Positions 4,745 through 42,801 of a stretch of DNA of 64,000 nucleotides are shown here, piece after piece; the stretch's first letter is position 1; the number at the start of each line of letters is the position of its first letter. The stretch lies in contig CAZWXQ010000002.1 of NCBI GenBank assembly GCA_964637955.1, forward strand, positions 135,782 through 199,781. Reading direction: 5' to 3'. This DNA is from an uncultured Gammaproteobacteria bacterium (GTDB lineage Bacteria; Patescibacteriota; Microgenomatia; Levybacterales; UBA12049). A model generated the notes under the pieces. That model was not told the origin of the DNA. It did not search any database and saw only the letters and a list, made by a program, of their open reading frames with translations. The position numbers and the translations under genes were made by a program.

Positions 4745-5873
4745 CACAAAGCTAAAAGGTGCCATAATTAGCCTCATCTTGAACATTATATTTACAAATC
4801 CATATAAAAACGAATTTGAAAAAAAATTTCAAATCGCAGAGTCACATGTCAGAAATATAATTAATAATCCATTTAAAATAAGTACAGTTTCTGAAGATGG
4901 TTTAACAATAAGTATATATTTAAGTCAACTAATAGATAAAAAATTCTACATATTAGTTTGGACTGAAATTCAAGGAAATAACCTGCAAGTTAAAAGTGCA
5001 TTTAAACTATTAAAAGGATTTGTTGAAGAAGAGCATGTTAATGATCCAAAATGGATCCTTCAAAAATTTGTAAATGAATTTGGCCTCGTGATTCAGGTAG
5101 GTGAGCAGGTAGGTAAATTCATATATAAAGAAGATATTTTAGTAAAACCTTCGCTTACTCCCACGAATCTTCTTACATTTAATAATTTTCAAAATCACGC
5201 TTTTTTTGGCAGTCAATATTTCAAAATCATTGAAAGCCCAGGGCACAAAGTGGTTAAATGCTTTTTGATTTTCTTTATTGATGTAGATAGGTATTTATCT
5301 TGGATAGATGATAAATCTAATTCTGATAATGAAGAAGCAGCAAAAATATTGAAAGAGAAATTGAAAAGTTGCCCAGTTGGTAAGCCTGGATGGAGGGAGT
5401 ATGAAGGAATATGTAAGGAGATAGTTGAGTTTTTATTCAGAGATGATTTTTACAACTTTAATGCAGAGGAGCAACTTAGTACTTATGATGGGCTAGAAAT
5501 AAGAGATTTATTAGTGGTAAATGATGCTAAACCAGAGTCTTTATTTTGGAGTGGAGTTAAAAATGAATTTGGTTCAAATCAGATTATTTATGAATTTAAG
5601 AATCTCACAGATGAAATAGGGAAAGATGAGGTTTATCAAACAGACGATTACACTAACAAGGCGATTGGTTTTTTTGCAATCATTTTTTCAAGGAAAGGGT
5701 TATCCCCGAATGGGGTTAGTGCAGTTAAAAGAAAATATGATTCAACAGATAAAGTATTGGTTTTGAATTGTACAGATGAAGATTTAATCGAAATGCTTAC
5801 GTTGAGGAGTGCAGGGAAAGATCCTACGATCATACTTCAGCAAAAGAAAACAGAATTTGAAAGTACATATTGA
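4692..5873 (+). CDS. Hypothetical protein (about 390 aa; start uncertain, overlaps the upstream ORF by 52 nt)
   Basis: Long ORF with AT-rich codon usage typical of this genome. Confidence 0.45.
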   Translation: MKQSCVLILLCILIPNLDTKLKGAIISLILNIIFTNPYKNEFEKKFQIAESHVRNIINNPFKISTVSEDGLTISIYLSQLIDKKFYILVWTEIQGNNLQVKSAFKLLKGFVEEEHVNDPKWILQKFVNEFGLVIQVGEQVGKFIYKEDILVKPSLTPTNLLTFNNFQNHAFFGSQYFKIIESPGHKVVKCFLIFFIDVDRYLSWIDDKSNSDNEEAAKILKEKLKSCPVGKPGWREYEGICKEIVEFLFRDDFYNFNAEEQLSTYDGLEIRDLLVVNDAKPESLFWSGVKNEFGSNQIIYEFKNLTDEIGKDEVYQTDDYTNKAIGFFAIIFSRKGLSPNGVSAVKRKYDSTDKVLVLNCTDEDLIEMLTLRSAGKDPTIILQQKKTEFESTY

Positions 5874-9517: not shown

Positions 9518-10714
9518 ATGAATTTAGGTATTGGAATAGTTGGGCTACCAAATGTGGGGAAGTCAACTTTGTTTAATGCACTTCTTAAGAAGCAGCAGGC
9601 GCTTGTGGCGAATTATCCGTTTGCGACCATTGAGCCAAATGTGGGCGTAGTCGCTGTGCCAGATGCTAGGCTTGAAAAGCTTGCGGGGATTACGATGAAT
9701 GAAGAGAAGATGGGAAGTCTTCCTCCATTAAAGCCTGCGACTGTTAATTTCGTGGACATTGCCGGACTCGTTAAAGGAGCTAGTGAAGGCGCAGGACTTG
9801 GAAATAAATTTCTTTCTCATATCCGCGAAGTTTCAGTTATTGCTCATGTAGTTCGAGTGTTTAGCGATCCAGATGTAATAAGATATCAGGATGAAAAAGA
9901 GGCCCGCCTGCCAGCGCTTGAGCGCAGCGATAGCGGGCAGGGAAGCGTTGACCCTAAAGCAGATTATGAAACCATTAACACAGAATTGATCTTAGCTGAT
10001 ATTCAGACGCTAACAAAAACTCTTGAGAATAGAAAACTTGAGCCACATAAAAAGAGTGGAGCAGAGAAATTACTTGAAAGTTTGAATTCTGGAAAGAGAG
10101 CGTTTGATGTTATTCTAACTGATGAAGAAAAGGATGCAACTTGGGATATGTTTCTTCTTACCAATAAGCCTGAGATTATAGTTCTTAATGTAGCGGAAGA
10201 TGAATATATGGGAGACGCAATTGGAGGATTTATTGATAAATGGTCTGAGGTTTTAGGCATGCCAAAAGAAAAATTTGTTGTAATTTCAGCTAAGATTGAA
10301 GCTGAATTAGCTAGTTTAAGTGAAGAAGAGCAATTGGAATATTTGAAAGATTTAGGCTTAGCTCATTCGGGATTAGAGCGTCTAATTCAAAAAGCTTATG
10401 AAGAACTTGGTTTGATTTCATTTCTCACATGCGGGGAAAAAGAAGTTCGAGCATGGACTATGAAAAAAGGCTTGAGTGCGCAAATGGCTGCTGGAGAAAT
10501 CCATACAGATTTTATTAAAAAATTTATAAAAGCTGAGGTTGTAAGCTTTAACGATTTCGTTGATCCTGATGGTTGCGGAGGTCCTGCCCGCAACGGCCAG
10601 CCTTGCGTGGCAGGCGGGTGGAAAGGCGCGAGGGAAAATGGGAAAGCGAGAATGGAAGGACGAGATTATATAATGCATGATGGTGATGTAGTGGAATTTA
10701 AAATTGGCTCATAG
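9518..10714 (+). CDS. ychF: Ribosome-binding ATPase YchF (Obg-family GTPase with C-terminal TGS domain)
   Basis: N-terminal GIVGLPNVGKSTLFNAL P-loop and NxxD region. C-terminal ...GRDYIMHDGDVVEFK matches YchF. Confidence 0.85.
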   Translation: MNLGIGIVGLPNVGKSTLFNALLKKQQALVANYPFATIEPNVGVVAVPDARLEKLAGITMNEEKMGSLPPLKPATVNFVDIAGLVKGASEGAGLGNKFLSHIREVSVIAHVVRVFSDPDVIRYQDEKEARLPALERSDSGQGSVDPKADYETINTELILADIQTLTKTLENRKLEPHKKSGAEKLLESLNSGKRAFDVILTDEEKDATWDMFLLTNKPEIIVLNVAEDEYMGDAIGGFIDKWSEVLGMPKEKFVVISAKIEAELASLSEEEQLEYLKDLGLAHSGLERLIQKAYEELGLISFLTCGEKEVRAWTMKKGLSAQMAAGEIHTDFIKKFIKAEVVSFNDFVDPDGCGGPARNGQPCVAGGWKGARENGKARMEGRDYIMHDGDVVEFKIGS

Positions 10715-18568: not shown

Positions 18569-19570
18569 ATGAGTAAAATACCAAAAGTTGTAACAATTGG
18601 TGGGGGAACGGGAAGCTATGCTTCTTTAATGGGTTTGAAAAAATATGATCTCAAGCTCTGCGCTATCGTGAACATGCTTGATAACGGCGGTTCTTCGGGA
18701 ATTCTGCGTGATGAGCTAGGAGTTCTTCCTCCAGGAGATGTTAGGCAGTGTCTTGTGGCGCTTGCTGATTCTTCAAAACTTCTTCGCGATTTGTTTAATT
18801 ATAGATTTGAGGAGGGGGGACTTAAAGGACATAGCTTCGGAAATATTTTCCTTTCTACTTTAGAAAAACAGAGTGGAAGTATGAAAAAAGCCATAGAGGA
18901 GGCTGGAAAAATTTTAAGAATAAAAGGAAATGTTGTTCCAGTTACTTTAACAAAAGAAACAACTCTTTGTGTAGAACTTGATGATGGGACTGTTATAAAA
19001 GGAGAGACGCACATTGATGTTCTTGAGAAAAAAGAGAAAAGAGCACCAATTAGTAAAGCTTATCTAAGCAATAAAGCGCTTTTAAATGAGGACGCAAAAG
19101 AAAGTATAGAAAAAGCGGATTTTATAATAATTGGTCCAGGTGATATGTATACAAGTCTTTTGCCAATTATTTTGGTGGATGGTGTGCCAGAGGCAATAAA
19201 AAATTCACCAGCTAAGATAATATTTGTTTTAAATCTAATGACAAAATATGGTCAGACAAGCCATTACAGTGCAAAAAAACATATTGAAGAATTTGAAAAA
19301 TATCTTGGAAAAGGAATTATTGATTATGTTCTTGTTAATTCAAAAAATCCCAAGAAATCAGTCTTATCTTGGTACGAAGAATATGATGAGTTTCCTGTAG
19401 CTGATGATTTAAATGACAGCGAAAGTTTTGAAATCATTCGTAAAGATCTTTTAAAAGATGTGGTAATTACTCCAGAAGCTTCAGATAAACTCCGAAGAAG
19501 TATCATAAGACATGATTCAAAAAAGCTTGCAGATGCAGTAATGCAGCTAGTTGAAAACCCTAAGCTTTAG
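18569..19570 (+). CDS. yvcK: YvcK/CofD-family (UPF0052) gluconeogenesis factor-like protein
   Basis: VVTIGGGTGS...DNGGSSGILRDE...PPGDVRQCLVALA signature. Confidence 0.8.
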   Translation: MSKIPKVVTIGGGTGSYASLMGLKKYDLKLCAIVNMLDNGGSSGILRDELGVLPPGDVRQCLVALADSSKLLRDLFNYRFEEGGLKGHSFGNIFLSTLEKQSGSMKKAIEEAGKILRIKGNVVPVTLTKETTLCVELDDGTVIKGETHIDVLEKKEKRAPISKAYLSNKALLNEDAKESIEKADFIIIGPGDMYTSLLPIILVDGVPEAIKNSPAKIIFVLNLMTKYGQTSHYSAKKHIEEFEKYLGKGIIDYVLVNSKNPKKSVLSWYEEYDEFPVADDLNDSESFEIIRKDLLKDVVITPEASDKLRRSIIRHDSKKLADAVMQLVENPKL

Positions 19571-20156
19571 ACCTCGATTTTTTAATGTGTTCGTGAACAA
19601 GTGTGTTTACTCCAGGAATTAGCTGAATAAAATAAACAGATTTTTCAGCCAATATCTCAAGAGGATTAGTTTTATATTTATACTTTTTATATAAATCAGG
19701 TGCTTGTTTTTTAAGCACCTCACTAGAGCTAATCATGGTCACATCCATTCCCTCTTTTTTAAAGAGCATTTTAGAGCGAGCGAAATGTTCAGGAGTCGTC
19801 ATTACCATAAGATGTTTTAAGTTTAATTTATCTGCGATTTTCTTAACTTCCTGGGCATTTTGCACAGTGTCCTTGGAAATATCTTCAAGTATTATTTTTT
19901 CTTTTGGAAAGTCGGGGAAGTTTAAGATCAGAAAATCGCTCATGGCCTTGGCCTCAGAAGGGAAGTCGATGCCAGCCGTTTTTCCACCTGAAAAAATTAT
20001 ATGTGAGAAATTACTTGAATTAAATAATACTCCACCTGCTATTACAGAAAACTGCGCCCTGTCACTTAAAAAATGTTTGGTTTTTCTAATTCTATTTCTG
20101 GTCCAACTAATGCCGATATTTTTACCTAAAACCACTAAGCCGTCGTATTCATTCAT
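19560..20156 (-). CDS. DUF218 (YdcF/SanA/ElyC-like) domain protein
   Basis: VVLGKN...FSGGKTAG...SEAKAM...ILEDISKDTVQNA. Confidence 0.6.
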   Translation of the reverse strand: MNEYDGLVVLGKNIGISWTRNRIRKTKHFLSDRAQFSVIAGGVLFNSSNFSHIIFSGGKTAGIDFPSEAKAMSDFLILNFPDFPKEKIILEDISKDTVQNAQEVKKIADKLNLKHLMVMTTPEHFARSKMLFKKEGMDVTMISSSEVLKKQAPDLYKKYKYKTNPLEILAEKSVYFIQLIPGVNTLVHEHIKKSRSKA

Positions 20157-20189
20157 AAAATAATCTTAACACAAGTATTGAAGTGAAAA

Positions 20190-20768
20190 TTAGGGTATGG
20201 AGAGGCGGGAAATGCGAACGTTTTCAAGCATTTTCTGATATCTAATCAAATTTACAAAAGTCTCTTTTAAAACCTCAGTGATTGCATGACGCGACGCTTG
20301 AGCAGATTTCCCAAGTCTTTCGCCAAGTTCAGTGTCAGGAGAGAGACTGTGAAGATCAATTCCTGCTTCAGAAAGCAAGGTTTTTATACCGGCCTCGTCG
20401 CTATGTGCTGTGATGATGCCAACATCATCTTTTTTATGAGATTTTATAATTTTTTTGATTTCAGACATGTAATCGCTTGTTTTTTCTGTTAGATTCCCAA
20501 CTCGAATAGCATCCTGCGGAATATCGATATCTTTTAGATAATTTTTCATAAGACTTAAGCCCGACTGGGAATTGGAAAATAAAACTATCACTTTGGCAAT
20601 TCCTGCTAGAACTAGCAATCCGGCGGCAAGTGTTGTAATTCTTGTTGATGGATCAAGAACAGGGCTCTGTCCATTTAAACTTTGTGCAGTGCCAAAAACG
20701 ATCAGAGCACTTATAAGGTGAGGAGTTTCTATCTCTGGAGTATCGTGTTGGGTAAATCTTTCGAGCAT
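20190..20768 (-). CDS. Hypothetical protein (192 aa), possibly a distant DUF218-like protein
   Basis: ORF; weak resemblance only. Confidence 0.4.
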   Translation of the reverse strand: MLERFTQHDTPEIETPHLISALIVFGTAQSLNGQSPVLDPSTRITTLAAGLLVLAGIAKVIVLFSNSQSGLSLMKNYLKDIDIPQDAIRVGNLTEKTSDYMSEIKKIIKSHKKDDVGIITAHSDEAGIKTLLSEAGIDLHSLSPDTELGERLGKSAQASRHAITEVLKETFVNLIRYQKMLENVRISRLSIP

Positions 20769-20945
20769 TAATTAAAGTATACATCTTTTTCATCACTTAA
20801 TTACAATTTATCCCAAATCCTATAGTTAAGTAAGTTATTTTAAATTTGTGCTATAATTCTTTGGTTTTTAATATTGAACGTCTATTTTGCTGACGTTTCT
20901 TAATGTTAAAAACAAGCACATTAAAATTTAACAGGAAATTTAGTT

Positions 20946-20997
20946 TAGACACGGATTTTCAGGTATTGAGAATTCGATATTTGAAAGGCCGTGTCTA
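20946..20997. repeat. Inverted repeat TAGACACGG...(34 nt)...CCGTGTCTA at the left edge of the GC-rich island
   Basis: 9-bp perfect arms seen in sequence. Confidence 0.8.
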
Positions 20998-21026
20998 AAA
21001 TAACACAGCAAGTGGAGAAATTGGCG

Positions 21027-21215
21027 ATGCCAATGTCAGTAATTCCACCGTCGTGGACGAAGCGCCCCAGCGATTACGGTGATTCATCTTACGAAGAGGT
21101 GGTAGGCTACGACGAAAGTCGTTTCTGGGGACTCAACGTGTCTCTAGGTACAGTTGTCAAGGTAGCGTTCGCGGTCATCATCGCGCTCGTGCTTCTGGCA
21201 ACCTCAGGAACCTAG
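21027..21215 (+). CDS. Small protein A (62 aa) with C-terminal transmembrane helix (VVKVAFAVIIALVLLATSG)
   Basis: SD-like GGAGAAA upstream; high GC3. Confidence 0.45.
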   Translation: MPMSVIPPSWTKRPSDYGDSSYEEVVGYDESRFWGLNVSLGTVVKVAFAVIIALVLLATSGT

Positions 21216-21241
21216 TTCGAGAAGAACGGAGAGGAGAGATC

Positions 21242-21436
21242 ATGGACGAGAGAGACTTGGTTCAGGAAGCCAGAGCGAATAACTCTGACAACAGCTTCAC
21301 GAGTTCATCGCCTTGGGTGGCGCTTCTCGTGATGCTCGCGATCCTGATCATGCTCTACGGGGCATACTACTTCTTTTTTGGAGATCCAGAGCAGATCGAC
21401 GGGATCATTCGCTCGATTGCAGAGCAGATCAACTAA
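21242..21436 (+). CDS. Small membrane protein B (64 aa; PWVALLVMLAILIMLYGAYYFFF)
   Basis: Strong SD GGAGAGGAG 6 nt upstream; high GC3. Confidence 0.55.
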   Translation: MDERDLVQEARANNSDNSFTSSSPWVALLVMLAILIMLYGAYYFFFGDPEQIDGIIRSIAEQIN

Positions 21437-21447
21437 GGAGGTTCGAG

Positions 21448-21684
21448 ATGCGACAGTATTGGTCCAAGATCGAGGACGAAGAGGGCGAGGTGTACAATGC
21501 CTCCCATCTGCTCCTGGAAGTGCTCGGGTCGATCGTGGCGATCATCGTCACCTTCGTGTTCATCATGCCCGGTTGGGTGTGGAACGCCGCTCTCGAGCCT
21601 GTGCTCAAGGGAGTTCGGCTCATCCAGGCTGACATCTACGAGGGTCGCAATCAAGCGAGTCTCGAGTCAGAGAACGGTTCCTGA
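21448..21684 (+). CDS. Small membrane protein C (78 aa; LGSIVAIIVTFVFIMPGWVW)
   Basis: AAGGAGG SD 7 nt upstream; GC3 about 80%. Confidence 0.55.
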   Translation: MRQYWSKIEDEEGEVYNASHLLLEVLGSIVAIIVTFVFIMPGWVWNAALEPVLKGVRLIQADIYEGRNQASLESENGS

Positions 21685-21727
21685 TCGTCAGGAAGCAGCC
21701 GGCCAAAAGCCGAGAAAGGGCAGTCAA

Positions 21728-21832
21728 ATGTTCAAGACCGGGTTCAAGTGGCTCGTGGCAATCACCGCAGTGGTGACCTCCATCGGAGTCGCAGTCGCGA
21801 CCTGGTACGAGAAGCATGGTTACAAGAGGTAA
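21728..21832 (+). CDS. Small membrane peptide D (34 aa; FKWLVAITAVVTSIGVAVATW)
   Basis: GAAAGGG upstream; in tandem with C and E. Confidence 0.4.
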   Translation: MFKTGFKWLVAITAVVTSIGVAVATWYEKHGYKR

Positions 21833-21834
21833 TC

Positions 21835-21972
21835 ATGAACCGAACTGTTTGTTCGCGCGCTTCGCCCTTGTTGGTGATATTCCTGTTTAATGGAGCCTGC
21901 GGAAGGAAGCTTCTGTCAATCATCTGGCCGATGGCGGTTGGAATGGTATGCAGAAATTGCAGATCTCCGTAG
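21835..21972 (+). CDS. Small Cys-containing hydrophobic peptide E (45 aa)
   Basis: AGAGG SD. Starts 3 nt after the stop of D. Confidence 0.35.
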   Translation: MNRTVCSRASPLLVIFLFNGACGRKLLSIIWPMAVGMVCRNCRSP

Positions 21973-22165
21973 CAGGGGAACAAGGGATACATTGCGGTGT
22001 CTGTAGTGTTGGTTTTTACCAACGCACACGCGATATTTCGCACCCACTTTCTTCTTTTGTTCCTATTTCTAAGTTATTAAATTGTATTGATAATTTAGGA
22101 ATAAATACTATGAATAATTATCCGTTGTTTCTAGCCACGATGTATGTTAAAATTAGATTCACAAT

Positions 22166-22438
22166 ATGATATATAATTTAACATTAGTTTTAAGATCAAG
22201 TCTCAAAGAAGATCAGAGAAAAAAGCTTATCGATGGAGTAAAGGACTCTTTTGGTAAAGCAAAAATTACTGAAAAAGAAATAGGACAAAAGCCACTAGCT
22301 TATCCTATTGATAAAGAAGTTTCTGGATATTTTGTGTCAATGGTAGCAGAGCCAGAAGAGGTAATTTCAAAAGATTTCGAAAAAAAGTTATTTTCAAACG
22401 ACAACATCTTAAGACATTTATTTTTAAGAACAAAATAA
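22166..22438 (+). CDS. rpsF: 30S ribosomal protein S6
   Basis: MIYNLTLVLR...GQKPLAYPI...GYFVSM pattern. Sits in the rpsF-ssb-rpsR order. Confidence 0.75.
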   Translation: MIYNLTLVLRSSLKEDQRKKLIDGVKDSFGKAKITEKEIGQKPLAYPIDKEVSGYFVSMVAEPEEVISKDFEKKLFSNDNILRHLFLRTK

Positions 22439-22513
22439 ATTTCGATATACCATGTACGATTTATCATTTTCGTAAATGGACAATTATAGATAATAAATGG
22501 TAAATATTAATTT

Positions 22514-23050
22514 ATGGCAAGATCATTAAACAGAGTGCAGCTCATCGGAAATCTAACAAGAGATCCAGAGCTAAGATATACCCCGCAGGGTACAGCTGTT
22601 TGCTCATTTAGTATTGCCACAAATAGATCTTGGACGACAGATGCAGGCGAGAAGAAAGACGAAGCTGACTTTCATAGAATAGTCGCTTGGAATAAACTCG
22701 CAGAACTTTGTAGTCAGTTTTTAACTAAAGGAAGAAAAGTTTATGTAGAAGGTAGGCTTTCTACTAGAAACTGGCAAGCCCAGGATGGAGCACAGAGAAG
22801 TACAACTGAAGTAATAATTTCAGATATGATACTTCTTGACTCAGCAGGTGGTAGATCAAGAGAAGATGAATCACCTGAAGAGCCAATGGGAGAAGAGGGA
22901 GAGGCAGAAGCTCTAAAGAATCCTTCATCAGCAAAAGCAGATGCAGGACAAAGAGAATCTAAATCTAAAAAAGAAAGTAAAAAGAAAGAGGAGCCGGAAT
23001 CAGAGGAGGCACCAGCTGAAGAAGTTGCACCCGATGATATACCATTCTAG
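22514..23050 (+). CDS. ssb: Single-stranded DNA-binding protein
   Basis: OB-fold N-terminal region (NRVQLIGNLTRDPELRYTP), acidic tail ending DDIPF. Confidence 0.85.
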   Translation: MARSLNRVQLIGNLTRDPELRYTPQGTAVCSFSIATNRSWTTDAGEKKDEADFHRIVAWNKLAELCSQFLTKGRKVYVEGRLSTRNWQAQDGAQRSTTEVIISDMILLDSAGGRSREDESPEEPMGEEGEAEALKNPSSAKADAGQRESKSKKESKKKEEPESEEAPAEEVAPDDIPF

Positions 23051-23137
23051 AAATATTGACAATTTACCATTGATGATTGATCAATTGATAGTCGGAAATA
23101 GTAAATTATAAATAATAAATAGTAAATTTTTAAAATT

Positions 23138-23383
23138 ATGGCAAGAGATAGAAGACCAAAAAAGAGAATAATGAAAGGAGTCCCAAAGGACTGTTATTTC
23201 TGTGTTGAGAAAAAAGAACCAACATTTGAAGATACAGCGGTTCTTCAAAGATTTCTTACAGAAAGAAGTAAAATTATTCCAAGAAGTAGAAACGGATTAT
23301 GCGCAAAACATCAAAATGCTTTGGCTTTGAATACAAAATACGCAAGACATTTAGCGCTTCTTCCATTTGTAGTCCGAAGTTAG
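23138..23383 (+). CDS. rpsR: 30S ribosomal protein S18
   Basis: CYFC...RFLTERSKIIPRSRNGLCAKHQ...ARHLALLPF. Confidence 0.8.
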   Translation: MARDRRPKKRIMKGVPKDCYFCVEKKEPTFEDTAVLQRFLTERSKIIPRSRNGLCAKHQNALALNTKYARHLALLPFVVRS

Positions 23384-23499
23384 CTCCATACATTGTCATC
23401 TTGAACTTGTTTTAGGATCTTTAAAATATTTTTCTTCTGTTCTTTTCTCCGAGAAAAGAACGAAAAGCTCTCGTCAAGTCTAGATTTGTGCTTTTAATT

Positions 23500-23565
23500 A
23501 TTCGTTCATTTATCGGGGGATTTCACCCCTTCCTCGACAAGTTTGCGAGGAATCCCCCTGATGCA
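23500..23565 (+). ncRNA. GC-rich nested stem-loop element in the rpsR-ctpA intergenic region (candidate structured RNA or terminator-like element)
   Basis: GGGGGAUU...AAUCCCCC encloses CCUCG-ACAAGUUUG-CGAGG. GC-rich in an AT-rich spacer. Confidence 0.25.
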
Positions 23566-23711
23566 TTCACTCCTACTTTCATGCACAAATCTGCGAAATT
23601 GACGAAAAATTAATTCTATATTTTTAAACATAAATACTGCATGGCCTATCGAATTTGATGCATTTCTAACCGGTTGTTAAAGTTTGAAAGTTTCTCTATA
23701 ATAGATTCTTA

Positions 23712-24968
23712 ATGCGAAAATCTCCTCGAATTCAAGTTTTTATCCTCATAATTATTGCTGGTTTGGTCGGATATTATATAGGTGTAAATAAAGTTAATTT
23801 TGAGTGGAAAAAGTTTCATCCAAAAATTACAGTAACGAGTAAAGCTCCGCCTCCAGAAATGAAAACTGCAGATTTTGCCCAGTTTTGGACTGTCTGGCAA
23901 AAACTTGAATCAGATTATTATGACAAGACCAAGCTCGATCCTCAAAAAATGGTAAATGGAGCTATTATGGGCATGGTAAATAGCTTGGGAGATCCATTTA
24001 CAGTTTATCTTCCACCAGTTCAAAATGATAATTTTAAGTCTGGGCTTGCTGGCCAATTCCAAGGAATTGGCGCTGAGCTGGGTACAAAAGACAGCCAGGT
24101 GATAGTTATAGCTCCAATCACAGGAGGTCCTGCAGAAAAGGCTGGTATTAAAGCTGGAGATATAATTCTTGCGGTTGATGGAAAATCCATAGCAAATTGG
24201 ACCATAAATCAGGCTGTAGAGAAAATTAGAGGACCTAAAGGTACAAGTGTGACTCTTACGTTGGGTCAAAAAGACAAGGAGCCAAGAGATGTAAAGATTG
24301 TTCGCGATGTTATAACCGTGAAGAGTCTTGAGGCAGGTATTAAAAAAGTTAAAGATCTAAACGGAGTAAAGTTAGATAAATCACTTGATAATCAAGAAGT
24401 AATTTATGCAAGACTTTCTCAGTTCGGAGATAACACAAATGATGAATGGCTTGATCAAATTAATAAGGTGAGTATCGCCATGAATACAAATAAAAATGTA
24501 AAAGGAGTAATCTTTGATCTTAGAAATAATCCAGGCGGATATCTTACAGATGCTGTATTTATTGCCTCAGAATTCCTTCAGGAAGGTCAGCCAGTAGTTA
24601 TGCAAGAAGAAGGCGGACAAAGAACAGTTTTAAAGGCTAATAGAAAAGGACTTCTTCAAGATATGCCCGTTATTATCTTAGTAAATAAAGGTTCTGCATC
24701 AGCAAGTGAAATTGTGACTGGTGCTTTAAGGGATCACAATAGAGCCACGGTAGTAGGAGATACTTCTTTTGGAAAAGGTACTATTCAGCAGGCAGAGGAC
24801 CTTGGTGGAGGTGCTGGTCTTCACGTAACAATAGCAAAATGGCTAACTCCGAATGGCACATGGGTACATGAAAAAGGAATTGAGCCAGACATTAAAGTAG
24901 CTCTTGATCCAAAGCAGCCTGAGCGAGACCTTCAGCTTGAAAAAGCAGTTGCGGAATTGTTAAAATAA
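23712..24968 (+). CDS. ctpA: S41-family carboxy-terminal processing peptidase
   Basis: N-terminal TM, PDZ (GIKAGDIILAVDGKS), S41 core (DLRNNPGGYL...GSASASEIVTGAL...GKGT). Confidence 0.8.
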   Translation: MRKSPRIQVFILIIIAGLVGYYIGVNKVNFEWKKFHPKITVTSKAPPPEMKTADFAQFWTVWQKLESDYYDKTKLDPQKMVNGAIMGMVNSLGDPFTVYLPPVQNDNFKSGLAGQFQGIGAELGTKDSQVIVIAPITGGPAEKAGIKAGDIILAVDGKSIANWTINQAVEKIRGPKGTSVTLTLGQKDKEPRDVKIVRDVITVKSLEAGIKKVKDLNGVKLDKSLDNQEVIYARLSQFGDNTNDEWLDQINKVSIAMNTNKNVKGVIFDLRNNPGGYLTDAVFIASEFLQEGQPVVMQEEGGQRTVLKANRKGLLQDMPVIILVNKGSASASEIVTGALRDHNRATVVGDTSFGKGTIQQAEDLGGGAGLHVTIAKWLTPNGTWVHEKGIEPDIKVALDPKQPERDLQLEKAVAELLK

Positions 24969-32197: not shown

Positions 32198-33175
32198 TTA
32201 TTGTGTTAACGTAGGCAAAGGACTTGGAATAATTATTCGATCAGAACCAGATAAATAACTTGCTTGTCCTGTTAATAAAATTCTGTCAACTTTAGAAGCA
32301 ATTTTTGTTATTTCTGGTCCAGCTCCATCAAGGGGTACAGGAATTGAAAATCCTTCGTTTTTTATTCTCTGTGTCTCATCTTTTCTTTTTAATTTAGCTT
32401 GCCAGGATTCATATCGATCTGGTCTTCTAGGGGTAATTGGATTTGCAAAAACAAAGGGAGAAAGTGATTCTCCCGATTCATCGACCATAAACCCAATTGT
32501 ATATCCATTTAATTCATGAGTATTAGGTTCAGGATTTTCAACGGAATCAATGATTCTTCTTACAGTATCGCTATCACTAGCTTTAGGATGATACATAATT
32601 GCTACAACACCACGATCTGCAAGAATCACTCTTGCTCCATCTGAATGTTCTGAAGAGCTAAGTCTAATTCGATCTTTATTATTTCTCCTTGTGACTTGAG
32701 TGAGATTTGTTTCAATTAATCCTGGAAATGTTTTTTTCGTAGAGCGATCAGTGCTCGCAGTTTTAAGAATTGCGCCCAATCTGCTTAAAGCAGGAGAACT
32801 AGATCCTTCAAGGGAGGTTAAGGTAGGTTCTAAGGCTGTCATAGCTTCTTGCTCAAATGCTTTGCGAACTCTTCTTTCTTGAGCTGTTTGCTGTTTATGT
32901 CTTCGAGCATTTAGTACATCCTGCGTAGCTGCAATTTGATGATCGATGCGTCTAACTGCTTCTTGTATTCTGTACCCAGCATTTCTTAATGGTTCAAGTC
33001 GAGCATCGATTGCTTCTCGTTCCTGTTCTAATGGGCGAATTGCGAGTTGAAGGCTTGCAAGGTCTTCAAGAAAACCATCGCGGCTTGCCTGATTTGCTGC
33101 GAGTTGTCTAACTAAATCTCTTTTCGGCAATGTTTCAAGTCCAGGCTTTGGTCTTTGATCGCTATCTATTCTCAT
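32198..33175 (-). CDS. Hypothetical protein (325 aa), N-terminal coiled-coil-like, locally higher GC
   Basis: ORF only. Confidence 0.45.
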
Positions 33176-40826: not shown

Positions 40827-41174
40827 ATGGACAATACAAATAACGGTACCAATCCAGCACCAGCTGATCCAGCAGGAGCACCAGCTCCAGTAGCTGATCC
40901 ATCAGCAGGTGGTTCATTAGGTTGGACTCCGCCGACACCAGAACCAGCAGCGCCTATCGCAGAACCAGCTGCACCAGTAGCAGATCCAGCAGGAGCACCA
41001 GCAGGTGGAGTACCAGCACCAGAGCCAACAAATAGTTGGACACCTGAGCCATCAACACCACCACAGCCAGCTGATCCAGTTGCACCTGCAGCTGACCCAG
41101 CAGTGGGAGGAGAAGCTCCTGCGCCAGCAGCGCCTGTTGATAGTGGAACTGGAACAGGTCAACCTGCAGCTTAA
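40827..41174 (+). CDS. Pro/Ala-rich low-complexity (disordered) protein with repeated (A)DPAGAPA and WTP(E)P motifs
   Basis: GAGGGGGTGA SD. Codon third positions are A/T-rich (native usage) despite the high local GC. Confidence 0.5.
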   Translation: MDNTNNGTNPAPADPAGAPAPVADPSAGGSLGWTPPTPEPAAPIAEPAAPVADPAGAPAGGVPAPEPTNSWTPEPSTPPQPADPVAPAADPAVGGEAPAPAAPVDSGTGTGQPAA

Positions 41175-42718: not shown

Positions 42719-42801
42719 TACCGAGGGAGAGATTCGAACTCTCAAGACCTTGCGGCCAGCAGTTTTTGAGACTGCCGCGTATACCGTTCCGCCACCCCGG
42801 C
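42719..42801 (-). tRNA. tRNA-Leu (anticodon CAA), class II with long variable arm
   Basis: Reverse complement reads GCCGGGGTGGCGGAACGGTATACGCG-GCAGT-CUCAAAA-ACTGC-(long arm)-GAGAGTTCGAATCTCTC-CCTCGGT-A. It has GTTCGAATC T-loop, U33 and A37. The acceptor has two G-U wobbles. No CCA is encoded. Confidence 0.75.

Follow-up and report, generated by a model that had tools for sequence, protein, structure and literature searches.

Small membrane proteins of bacteria (<80 aa, with a single transmembrane (TM) helix) are led by a Shine-Dalgarno (SD) sequence, restricted to particular lineages and often missed by gene finders. Small hydrophobic single-TM peptides are likewise produced by type I toxin-antitoxin loci such as hok/sok, TisB, Fst and AapA1, whose mRNAs are long-lived and strongly structured at both the 5' and the 3' end. 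Phage lysis cassettes (holin, antiholin and spanins) hold small TM genes in tandem, acquired genomic islands stand out by their atypical GC content and codon usage, and in the OLE RNA/OapA system and other large GC-rich non-coding RNAs of AT-rich genomes a GC-rich structured RNA of maintained composition lies beside, and is probably co-transcribed with, genes for membrane proteins. We describe here a GC-rich island, at about 20990-22050 of a 64,000-nucleotide (nt) stretch of contig CAZWXQ010000002.1 (assembly GCA_964637955.1; hereafter the window), which recalls each of these systems. It lies in a genome which SSB-based retrieval places in the Levyibacteriota (Microgenomates, candidate phyla radiation or CPR), encodes single-TM hydrophobic peptides of 34-78 aa and, like acquired islands, is absent from the next-closest genomes. 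We hold, with moderate confidence, that it is a transcription unit peculiar to its clade and passed on by vertical inheritance, whose transcript is most likely kept GC-rich as an unusually structured and stable mRNA.

The locus also departs from each of the described systems. The usual small membrane proteins are not known by the traits found here, namely four to six genes per operon, conserved structured untranslated regions (UTRs) and a codon usage inverse to that of the host over deep divergence. Unlike type I loci, it has several cistrons instead of one, occurs as a single syntenic chromosomal copy, holds a gene (ORF1) under purifying selection and matches no family. Unlike phage lysis cassettes, it has no endolysin, no nearby phage genes, no significant match among PHROGs and none in phage records or IMG/VR. 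It differs from OLE RNA in being mostly coding, with its structured parts confined to a hairpin of 52 nt and some 230 nt at the 3' end, and in having no OLE-like sequence. Acquired genomic islands differ from it as well, since it has no mobility genes and no donor, is syntenic in five diverged lineages and has not drifted to the composition of the host; nor does it resemble integron gene cassettes, as no attC hairpin follows each open reading frame (ORF; gaps of 11-43 nt) and there is no integrase. In the alpha proteobacterium HIMB5, short ORFs were present in about one in four of the unknown GC-rich intergenic regions that were analysed (PMC6429828). The locus of the window holds both a structured RNA and unannotated small ORFs, and no published description of it was found in the literature searched.

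An earlier reading of the window's letters (the original prediction) had noticed a jump in GC content between the minus-strand gene p192 and rpsF, and this was borne out by sliding-window analysis. The mean GC of the window is 0.352 and that of the island 0.50-0.62 (0.50-0.59 in 200-nt windows over 21000-21999, and up to 0.66 in 50-nt windows). Besides the island, only 40827-41174 keeps a GC of at least 0.48 over several 300-nt windows, and a single 300-nt window at 9651 also reaches 0.48. The codon choice of the island ORFs is inverted relative to the host: TTA falls from 29% to 0%, while ATC rises from 15% to 78-84%, AAG from 26% to 89-100% and TTC from 20% to 85%. The GC content at third codon positions (GC3) of six host genes around the island is 0.20-0.33, and the inverted usage is seen in all island lineages. 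The spacers between the island ORFs (GC 0.46-0.62) and the 3' UTR (0.48-0.52) are GC-rich too, which implies that the high GC belongs to the whole transcript and not to the codons alone. It had been advised to check for a chimeric assembly, in which a high-GC fragment would have been joined into the CPR contig; this would account for the composition change and for nothing further, and it can be dismissed with near certainty. Logan contig L001 is 100% identical to 19162-23772 of the window and so includes the entire island, while L002 covers 20897-23560, also at 100%. The two come from two sequencing runs and are identical to the window over both junctions, and at least 10 further samples hold an orthologous island. 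The Logan assembly of SRR14271336 breaks at 20897-20917, left of the island, where the ends of L002 and L004 overlap by 21 nt, while that of SRR14271332 is continuous; the break could be due to low coverage or to strain heterogeneity at the leader.

A search of other genomes of the lineage, as had been proposed, found the cassette at the same locus in five lineages (that of the window included), all Levyibacteriota. Their p192 proteins are 86% (L085/L086), 79% (L095, of which L093 is a partial copy), 63% (L088-L092) and 54% (L087) identical to that of the window. Wherever the contig is long enough, an island of 1.0-1.3 kb with a GC of 0.50-0.62 lies between p192 (or the adjacent DUF218 gene) and rpsF, in surroundings with a GC of 0.36-0.41. 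At the DNA level, the window is 81% identical to L085 in the 299 nt that follow p192 and 71% identical in the final 690 nt. Flanking proteins are 54-92% identical across the island lineages (73-92% for the S41 peptidase), and the rpsF, S41 peptidase and p192 genes of the window, set against those of the four remaining lineages, give synonymous distances (dS) of 0.8 to >2, at or near saturation, with a GC3 of 0.12-0.40. The island ORFs keep a GC3 of 0.47-0.88 in every lineage. The composition has thus survived a saturated synonymous turnover, which argues that selection, or a biased process acting locally, maintains it, and against its being the relic of a recent transfer. The similarity of the islands ranks with the closeness of the flanking genes, being highest with L085, then L095, then L088/L087. 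In 80 species-representative Levyibacteriota loci nothing island-like was found at DNA or peptide level. L015 and L052, whose gene order is closest to that of the window, have neither p192 nor island, and a spacer of ~70 nt separates their DUF218 gene from rpsF; its halves align to about 20110-20178 and 22102-22168 of the window, so that p192 and the island together amount to ~1.94 kb of extra DNA. A degenerate copy, ~20 nt long, of this ancestral spacer is present on both sides of the extra DNA (20157-20178 and 22102-22122), which is consistent with a tandem duplication of DUF218 together with its spacer. The island is also flanked by a perfect direct repeat of 10 nt, TTGGTTTTTA (20861-20870 and 22009-22018), which is probably due to chance.

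The original prediction had read the island as five tandem small genes, each preceded by an SD sequence. All five ORFs exist, and ORF1 to ORF4 are credible genes with SD sequences before them, while ORF5 is not a gene and its SD is not conserved. As had been predicted, four products carry one TM helix each, since ORF1-4 each show one strong 17-residue window with a Kyte-Doolittle value of 2.2-2.75. ORF1 (21027-21215, plus strand; 62 aa; SD GGAG; GC at codon positions 1/2/3 of 0.56/0.46/0.59; Kyte-Doolittle 2.75) has a conserved N-terminal motif, IPPSWT[KR][RH]P...SR[FVY]WG, and a C-terminal TM anchor. Its orthologues in L085, L093 and L095 are 44-63% identical with indels in frame, and against L085 the nonsynonymous distance (dN) is 0.29 and dS 1.73 (dN/dS ~0.17). 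ORF3 (21448-21684, plus strand; 78 aa; one TM helix; SD AAGGAGG; GC1/2/3 of 0.61/0.35/0.76) combines an acidic N-terminus with a conserved C-terminal helix, WVWNAALEP..KGVxLIxADI, and gives a dN of 0.37 and a dS of 0.52. A phmmer search of 1.84 billion representative proteins returned only two relatives of it, namely P0011 from L085 (59%, with E = 1.8e-14) and P0012 from L095 (48%, with E = 3e-5). ORF1, by its dN/dS, and ORF3, by its homologues, SD and GC3, thus behave as members of a protein-coding small-ORF operon.

ORF2 (21242-21436, plus strand; 64 aa; single TM; SD GGAGAGGAG; GC1/2/3 of 0.49/0.34/0.69; Kyte-Doolittle 2.53) and ORF4 (21728-21832, plus strand; 34 aa; single TM with basic flanks; GC1/2/3 of 0.43/0.43/0.80) evolve fast. 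They are 20-24% identical to their positional counterparts (ORF2 20% to L085), and an SD-led, high-GC3 ORF with one TM helix fills the slot in each lineage, as seen for both genes in L085 and L095. The sequence upstream of ORF4, AGCC(G/A)AGAAAGG(G/A)C(A/G)GTCAA-ATG, is kept in L085. In L087 and L088 the gene set is partly different, with four to six small TM ORFs which are homologous to each other (KKWYERWP, FF[KR]G, YSRRAG). Over all lineages, the island products show one 17-residue window with a Kyte-Doolittle value of 1.8-3.4, the exception being a basic 'b' ORF of L087/L088 with 1.5-1.75. The predicted GC3 of 70-80% was found in ORF2, ORF3 and ORF4 and not in ORF1 and ORF5 (0.59 each), and its reading as a frame-specific coding signature holds for ORF2-4 and most of their counterparts elsewhere, while ORF5 fails the coding tests. 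The proposed small-membrane-protein cassette is thereby supported as a tandem of SD-led single-TM genes, with a putative host-type extended -10 promoter in front. The orthologous L085 island (4972-5742) was given four small genes, of 39, 82, 57 and 57 aa, by the JGI gene calling.

Downstream of ORF4 lies a structured 3' region of ~220-230 nt (21843-22064, plus strand). It comprises, all on the plus strand, a small hairpin with an invariant CGCGCGCTTCGC block (~21843-21866), then at 21880-21975 a hairpin which is long and irregular (domain A), and at 21976-22064 a three-way junction (domain B). Independent minimum free energy folds gave the identical architecture, a long hairpin followed by a three-way junction, in each of the five lineages, all of which conserve the CGCGCGCTTCGC block and other 3' motifs. 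In a manual structural alignment of domain B, made to fit these folds, every one of the 121 cells holds a canonical pair, the majority of pairs covary and most stems differ considerably in sequence; MAFFT/RNAalifold aligned this domain poorly and the pairs were hence counted with our own script. Folding z-scores of domain B in the five lineages are -5.0, -5.0, -2.3, -5.7 and -5.9. The "ORF5" of the original prediction (21835-21972, plus strand; GC1/2/3 of 0.39/0.52/0.59) overlaps this region. Its dN and dS against L085 are nearly equal (0.14 and 0.13), its ATG in the window is replaced by a TTG without SD in L085, it has no equivalent in L095, L088 or L087, and its Kyte-Doolittle value is only 1.5. 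Overlapping frames on both strands appear equally conserved, which means that the nucleotides and not a protein are conserved; judged from these comparisons, ORF5 is part of the structured non-coding 3' RNA.

Neither this region nor the leader hairpin described below matched Rfam 15 (including SRP, 6S, OLE and ribosomal-protein leaders), and at E<=10 only chance miRNA-type matches on the hairpin were obtained over 20700-22300. With an nhmmer profile no other copy of either element was found in the window or in the 80 other Levyibacteriota loci. The segment CGGAAGGAAGC at 21902-21912 resembles the conserved apical motif of bacterial signal recognition particle (SRP, 4.5S) RNA, probably by coincidence; a relation was rejected as there was no Rfam SRP match and the segment is not conserved in L088/L087. 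A long-range pairing of ORF1 codons with the CGCGCGCTTCGC block was likewise rejected, since no consistent partner exists in other lineages.

At the other end of the island, the promoter region (20819-20857, plus strand) contains a CCTATAGT box at 20819-20826 and an extended -10 element, TGCTATAAT, at 20849-20857. Both are invariant or nearly so in the window, L085, L088 and L087, and the partial L093 sequence has both motifs too, with TGGTATAAT. The extended -10 facing into the island, which had been predicted, was found again as a conserved TGnTATAAT in four complete island lineages and in partial L093. A simple promoter scan did not list the TGCTATAAT site because it has no -35; it is the putative promoter of the small-ORF operon, and the CCTATAGT box may belong to the divergent promoter of p192. 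About 15-35 nt after the predicted transcription start there is a small hairpin (20877-20897, plus strand; AACGTC/GACGTT followed by a T-rich tract), which recurs in the alignments with altered stems in L085 (GCGTC/GACG), L093 (ACATCA/TGATGT) and L088 (ACGTCT/AGACGT plus T7) and is present also in L087; it would serve as an attenuator or a 5'-terminal stabiliser. The long leader hairpin follows at 20946-20997 (plus strand; 52 nt, ~24 bp with a 4-nt loop). The 9-bp inverted repeat which had been noticed at the left edge of the island is the outer part of this conserved hairpin. The hairpin folds in all five lineages (-28 to -37 kcal/mol), and RNAalifold predicts 24 pairs, six of them with compensatory double changes. 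Its G-U pairs and the stronger z-score on the plus strand (-6.9 against -5.1 on the minus strand, for 20850-21049) favour an RNA of the plus strand. The L088/L087 leader has an extra insert of ~70 nt (alignment gap coordinates ~140-215) with two more hairpins, ATCCTC.GA.GCCTT.GGGC..CGAAGGAT and GGATTTCGAT..ATCGAAAT, which the window, L085 and L093 do not have.

Such a leader stands apart from the expression habits of the rest of the window. A GGAG/GAGG SD precedes only three of 52 long ORFs, all three of which abut or overlap the preceding ORF, and many others have a TATAAT-like -10 box within ~25 nt of their start (e.g. 7552, 9518, 15201, 16632, 23712 and 27172, and 32198-33175 on the minus strand). 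This suggests that the genome mostly uses leaderless or very short-leader mRNAs, for which a structured leader of ~165 nt followed by four SD-led cistrons is unusual; the SD sites of the island are consistent with host practice for internal cistrons.

What is observed is the anatomy of the unit, its conservation, the coding status of its ORFs and the persistence of its composition; transcription, mRNA stability and the function of the proteins are our inference. In the mechanism we propose, the extended -10 promoter would drive a leader of ~165 nt with the small and the 24-bp hairpin, followed by four SD-led cistrons, each for a single-pass membrane protein of 34-78 aa, ORF1 and ORF3 being conserved and ORF2 and ORF4 turning over quickly, and the unit would end in the ~230-nt structured RNA, with its long hairpin and three-way junction, just upstream of the rpsF promoter. 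The unusually structured polycistronic mRNA would be protected from nucleases by a stem-loop at its 5' end, by several helices capping the 3' end and by a GC-rich body with few AU-rich sites for cleavage, and would allow a long-lived and/or tightly gated synthesis of small membrane proteins acting together in the envelope. Maintenance of the high GC probably operates on the RNA, the likeliest reason being an mRNA of unusual stability and/or gated translation. A single ancient gain by the ancestor of the clade is possible, but would not explain why the composition has persisted. Several points weigh against this reading. The sequences of ORF2 and ORF4 are not conserved, and the support for these genes comes only from position, SD, TM helix and GC3. 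The ORF interior folds only slightly better than shuffled sequence (z-scores of ORF bodies 0 to -2.7), and the Logan gene caller reported no gene in the island (L001, 1608-3004). The covariation statistics are thin, as there are five lineages in two deep groups and domain B was aligned so as to fit its predicted folds. Finally, a transcript may stay GC-rich in several ways, of which selection for the stability or structure of the mRNA is only one.

A further possibility is a dual-function RNA, with selection acting on the transcript of ~1.2 kb itself. Its GC-rich scaffold, capped by the 5' hairpin and by the 3' module of long hairpin and three-way junction, would be tethered or partnered at the envelope by the co-encoded membrane proteins, as a membrane ribonucleoprotein resembling OLE/OapA. 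In a more extreme version, the RNA would be made to persist and to be read by ribosomes beyond the normal AT-rich and mostly leaderless expression of its producer. We regard this reading as improbable; if true in either version, it would account for the retention of composition, codon usage and UTR structure in the face of the mutational bias of the host.

The original prediction had taken the composition to be that of a high-GC donor, from which the cassette was acquired horizontally, and had named a high-GC host of an epibiont as an attractive source. Composition, codon usage and dense SD use are indeed unlike those of the surrounding genes, the nearest genomes outside the clade have neither island nor p192, and the imperfect repeat of the ancestral spacer stands at both ends of the extra 1.94 kb. 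Against this, orthologous islands occupy the same locus in five lineages with synonymously saturated flanks and are most similar where the flanking genes are closest, and a transfer before the clade arose should have drifted to host composition. Neither island peptides nor island DNA were found outside the clade among 5.8 billion proteins, 1.84 billion representatives, phages, plasmids, and viral and JGI contigs, so that neither a donor nor the epibiont-host version is supported. Individually, blastn and tblastn against phages and plasmids (tblastn covering 50,697 phage records), IMG/VR scans and two JGI metagenome scans (with ORF3 and with an ORF1 alignment) gave no match, and exact-protein lookup of ORF3 gave no record; a word-indexed protein search with the five concatenated peptides and with ORF3 alone returned nothing, its index being insensitive enough to miss the 59% identical L085 orthologue of ORF3. 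No integrase, transposase, tRNA flank or att site was found at the island, the sole repeats being the 10-nt and the degenerate ~20-nt ones. A recent acquisition is accordingly very unlikely. An exchange hotspot, with the 5' and 3' elements as recombination anchors and a middle replaced from a GC-rich pool or driven to high GC by biased conversion, would suit the conserved flanks around a very divergent or non-homologous middle, and perhaps the break of the SRR14271336 assembly at 20897-20917. Yet such a break has simpler causes, e.g. low coverage, no GC-rich pool was detectable in protein and DNA searches, ORF1 and ORF3 track the host relationships, and reported effects of biased gene conversion are far smaller than a shift of GC3 from 0.2 to 0.7; we give this explanation hardly more credit than a recent transfer.

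More weight, if still well short of an even chance, is due to the idea that the peptides are membrane-damaging or gating effectors (a type I toxin, a holin or an exclusion system), their structured GC-rich mRNA staying silent until processed. Stable, folded mRNAs are typical of hok-type toxins, and here the 5' and 3' RNA structures are strong and conserved, the peptides of 34-78 aa have charged flanks around a single TM helix, and the fast divergence of ORF2 and ORF4 and the different gene sets of L087/L088 and the window are common for conflict genes. But Pfam, PADLOC, PHROGs and NCBIfam, searched with the five peptides and p192, gave no significant match, toxin, holin and defence models included, so that the holin, toxin, bacteriocin and exclusion roles put forward in the original prediction are guesses. 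Nor is there an endolysin or phage context, a consensus scan saw no minus-strand promoter or terminator of a possible antisense RNA inside the island, and a single-copy syntenic locus with ORF1 under purifying selection and four to six cistrons with strong SD sites is not of type I architecture. At the opposite extreme, the whole island might be one large structured non-coding RNA with incidental ORFs. Long GC-rich intergenic regions of AT-rich genomes are enriched for structured RNAs (PMC6429828), and both ends of the island are structured and conserved, Logan called no genes in it and ORF5 is spurious. This is contradicted by the frame-specific GC of ORF2-4 and most of their counterparts, with GC3 well above GC2, by the dN/dS of ~0.17 and in-frame indels of ORF1, by an SD before every credible ORF and one TM helix per product even where the sequence has diverged, and by an ORF body which folds hardly better than shuffled sequence and matches nothing in Rfam; the explanation is as doubtful as that of a recent transfer.

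An inherited unit with maintained composition, as we prefer to read the locus, separates atypical composition from recent horizontal transfer, two things which are commonly conflated. That an island of inverted codon usage is stably inherited suggests that, in this reduced and AT-rich CPR genome, selection acts on the nucleotide content of a transcription unit as a whole. The locus adds at least two orphan families of small membrane proteins (ORF1 and ORF3) and two new RNA structures that are conserved (a hairpin in the leader, a three-way junction at the 3' end), and gives a concrete example of genes overlooked by some gene-calling pipelines. If the RNA-level explanation is true, it would offer a tractable natural case of mRNA architecture controlling the output of small membrane proteins in mostly leaderless organisms.

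The neighbours of the island in the window are DUF218, CofD, rpsF and ssb genes. The divergently transcribed p192 (20190-20768, minus strand; 192 aa) is both neighbour and marker of the island-bearing clade: it has 10 homologues among 5.8 billion proteins, and all those on sufficiently long contigs adjoin a GC-rich island, while the short contigs of P0006 and P0008-P0010 held no further island sequence. The protein shows a weak similarity to its DUF218 neighbour, and its AF2 model has a Rossmann-like alpha/beta fold (pLDDT, the predicted local distance difference test, of 70). A fold search gave only generic Rossmann-like matches (TM 0.3-0.36), and a profile search of the PDB was uninformative. 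It is probably a diverged DUF218 paralogue, which may be tied to the island by function or just by shared descent. In L087, L094 and L096 the order of p192 and the DUF218-like gene is swapped. Downstream of the island, the predicted rpsF promoter (22125-22153, plus strand; TTGTTT, 17 nt, TG-extended TAAAAT) ends ~12 nt before the rpsF ATG at 22166. It is kept in the five island lineages and in the island-less L015 and L052, and its position would make the rpsF mRNA probably near-leaderless.

Other GC-rich stretches proved unrelated. That at 40827-41174 is a 115-aa Pro/Ala-rich low-complexity ORF, SD-preceded and directly downstream of a DnaB-like helicase gene, and was rejected as a related spot. 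In two other Levyibacteriota, GC-rich stretches near rpsF (L006, 5401-5750; L016, 4701-5200) were rejected as analogues of the island, as they are an Ala/Pro/Ser-rich insert (…SSQGAPASLA.AANADARL…) in the YchF GTPase. The sole match to Rfam at gathering score in the window is an 83-nt tRNA gene at 42719-42801 on the minus strand.

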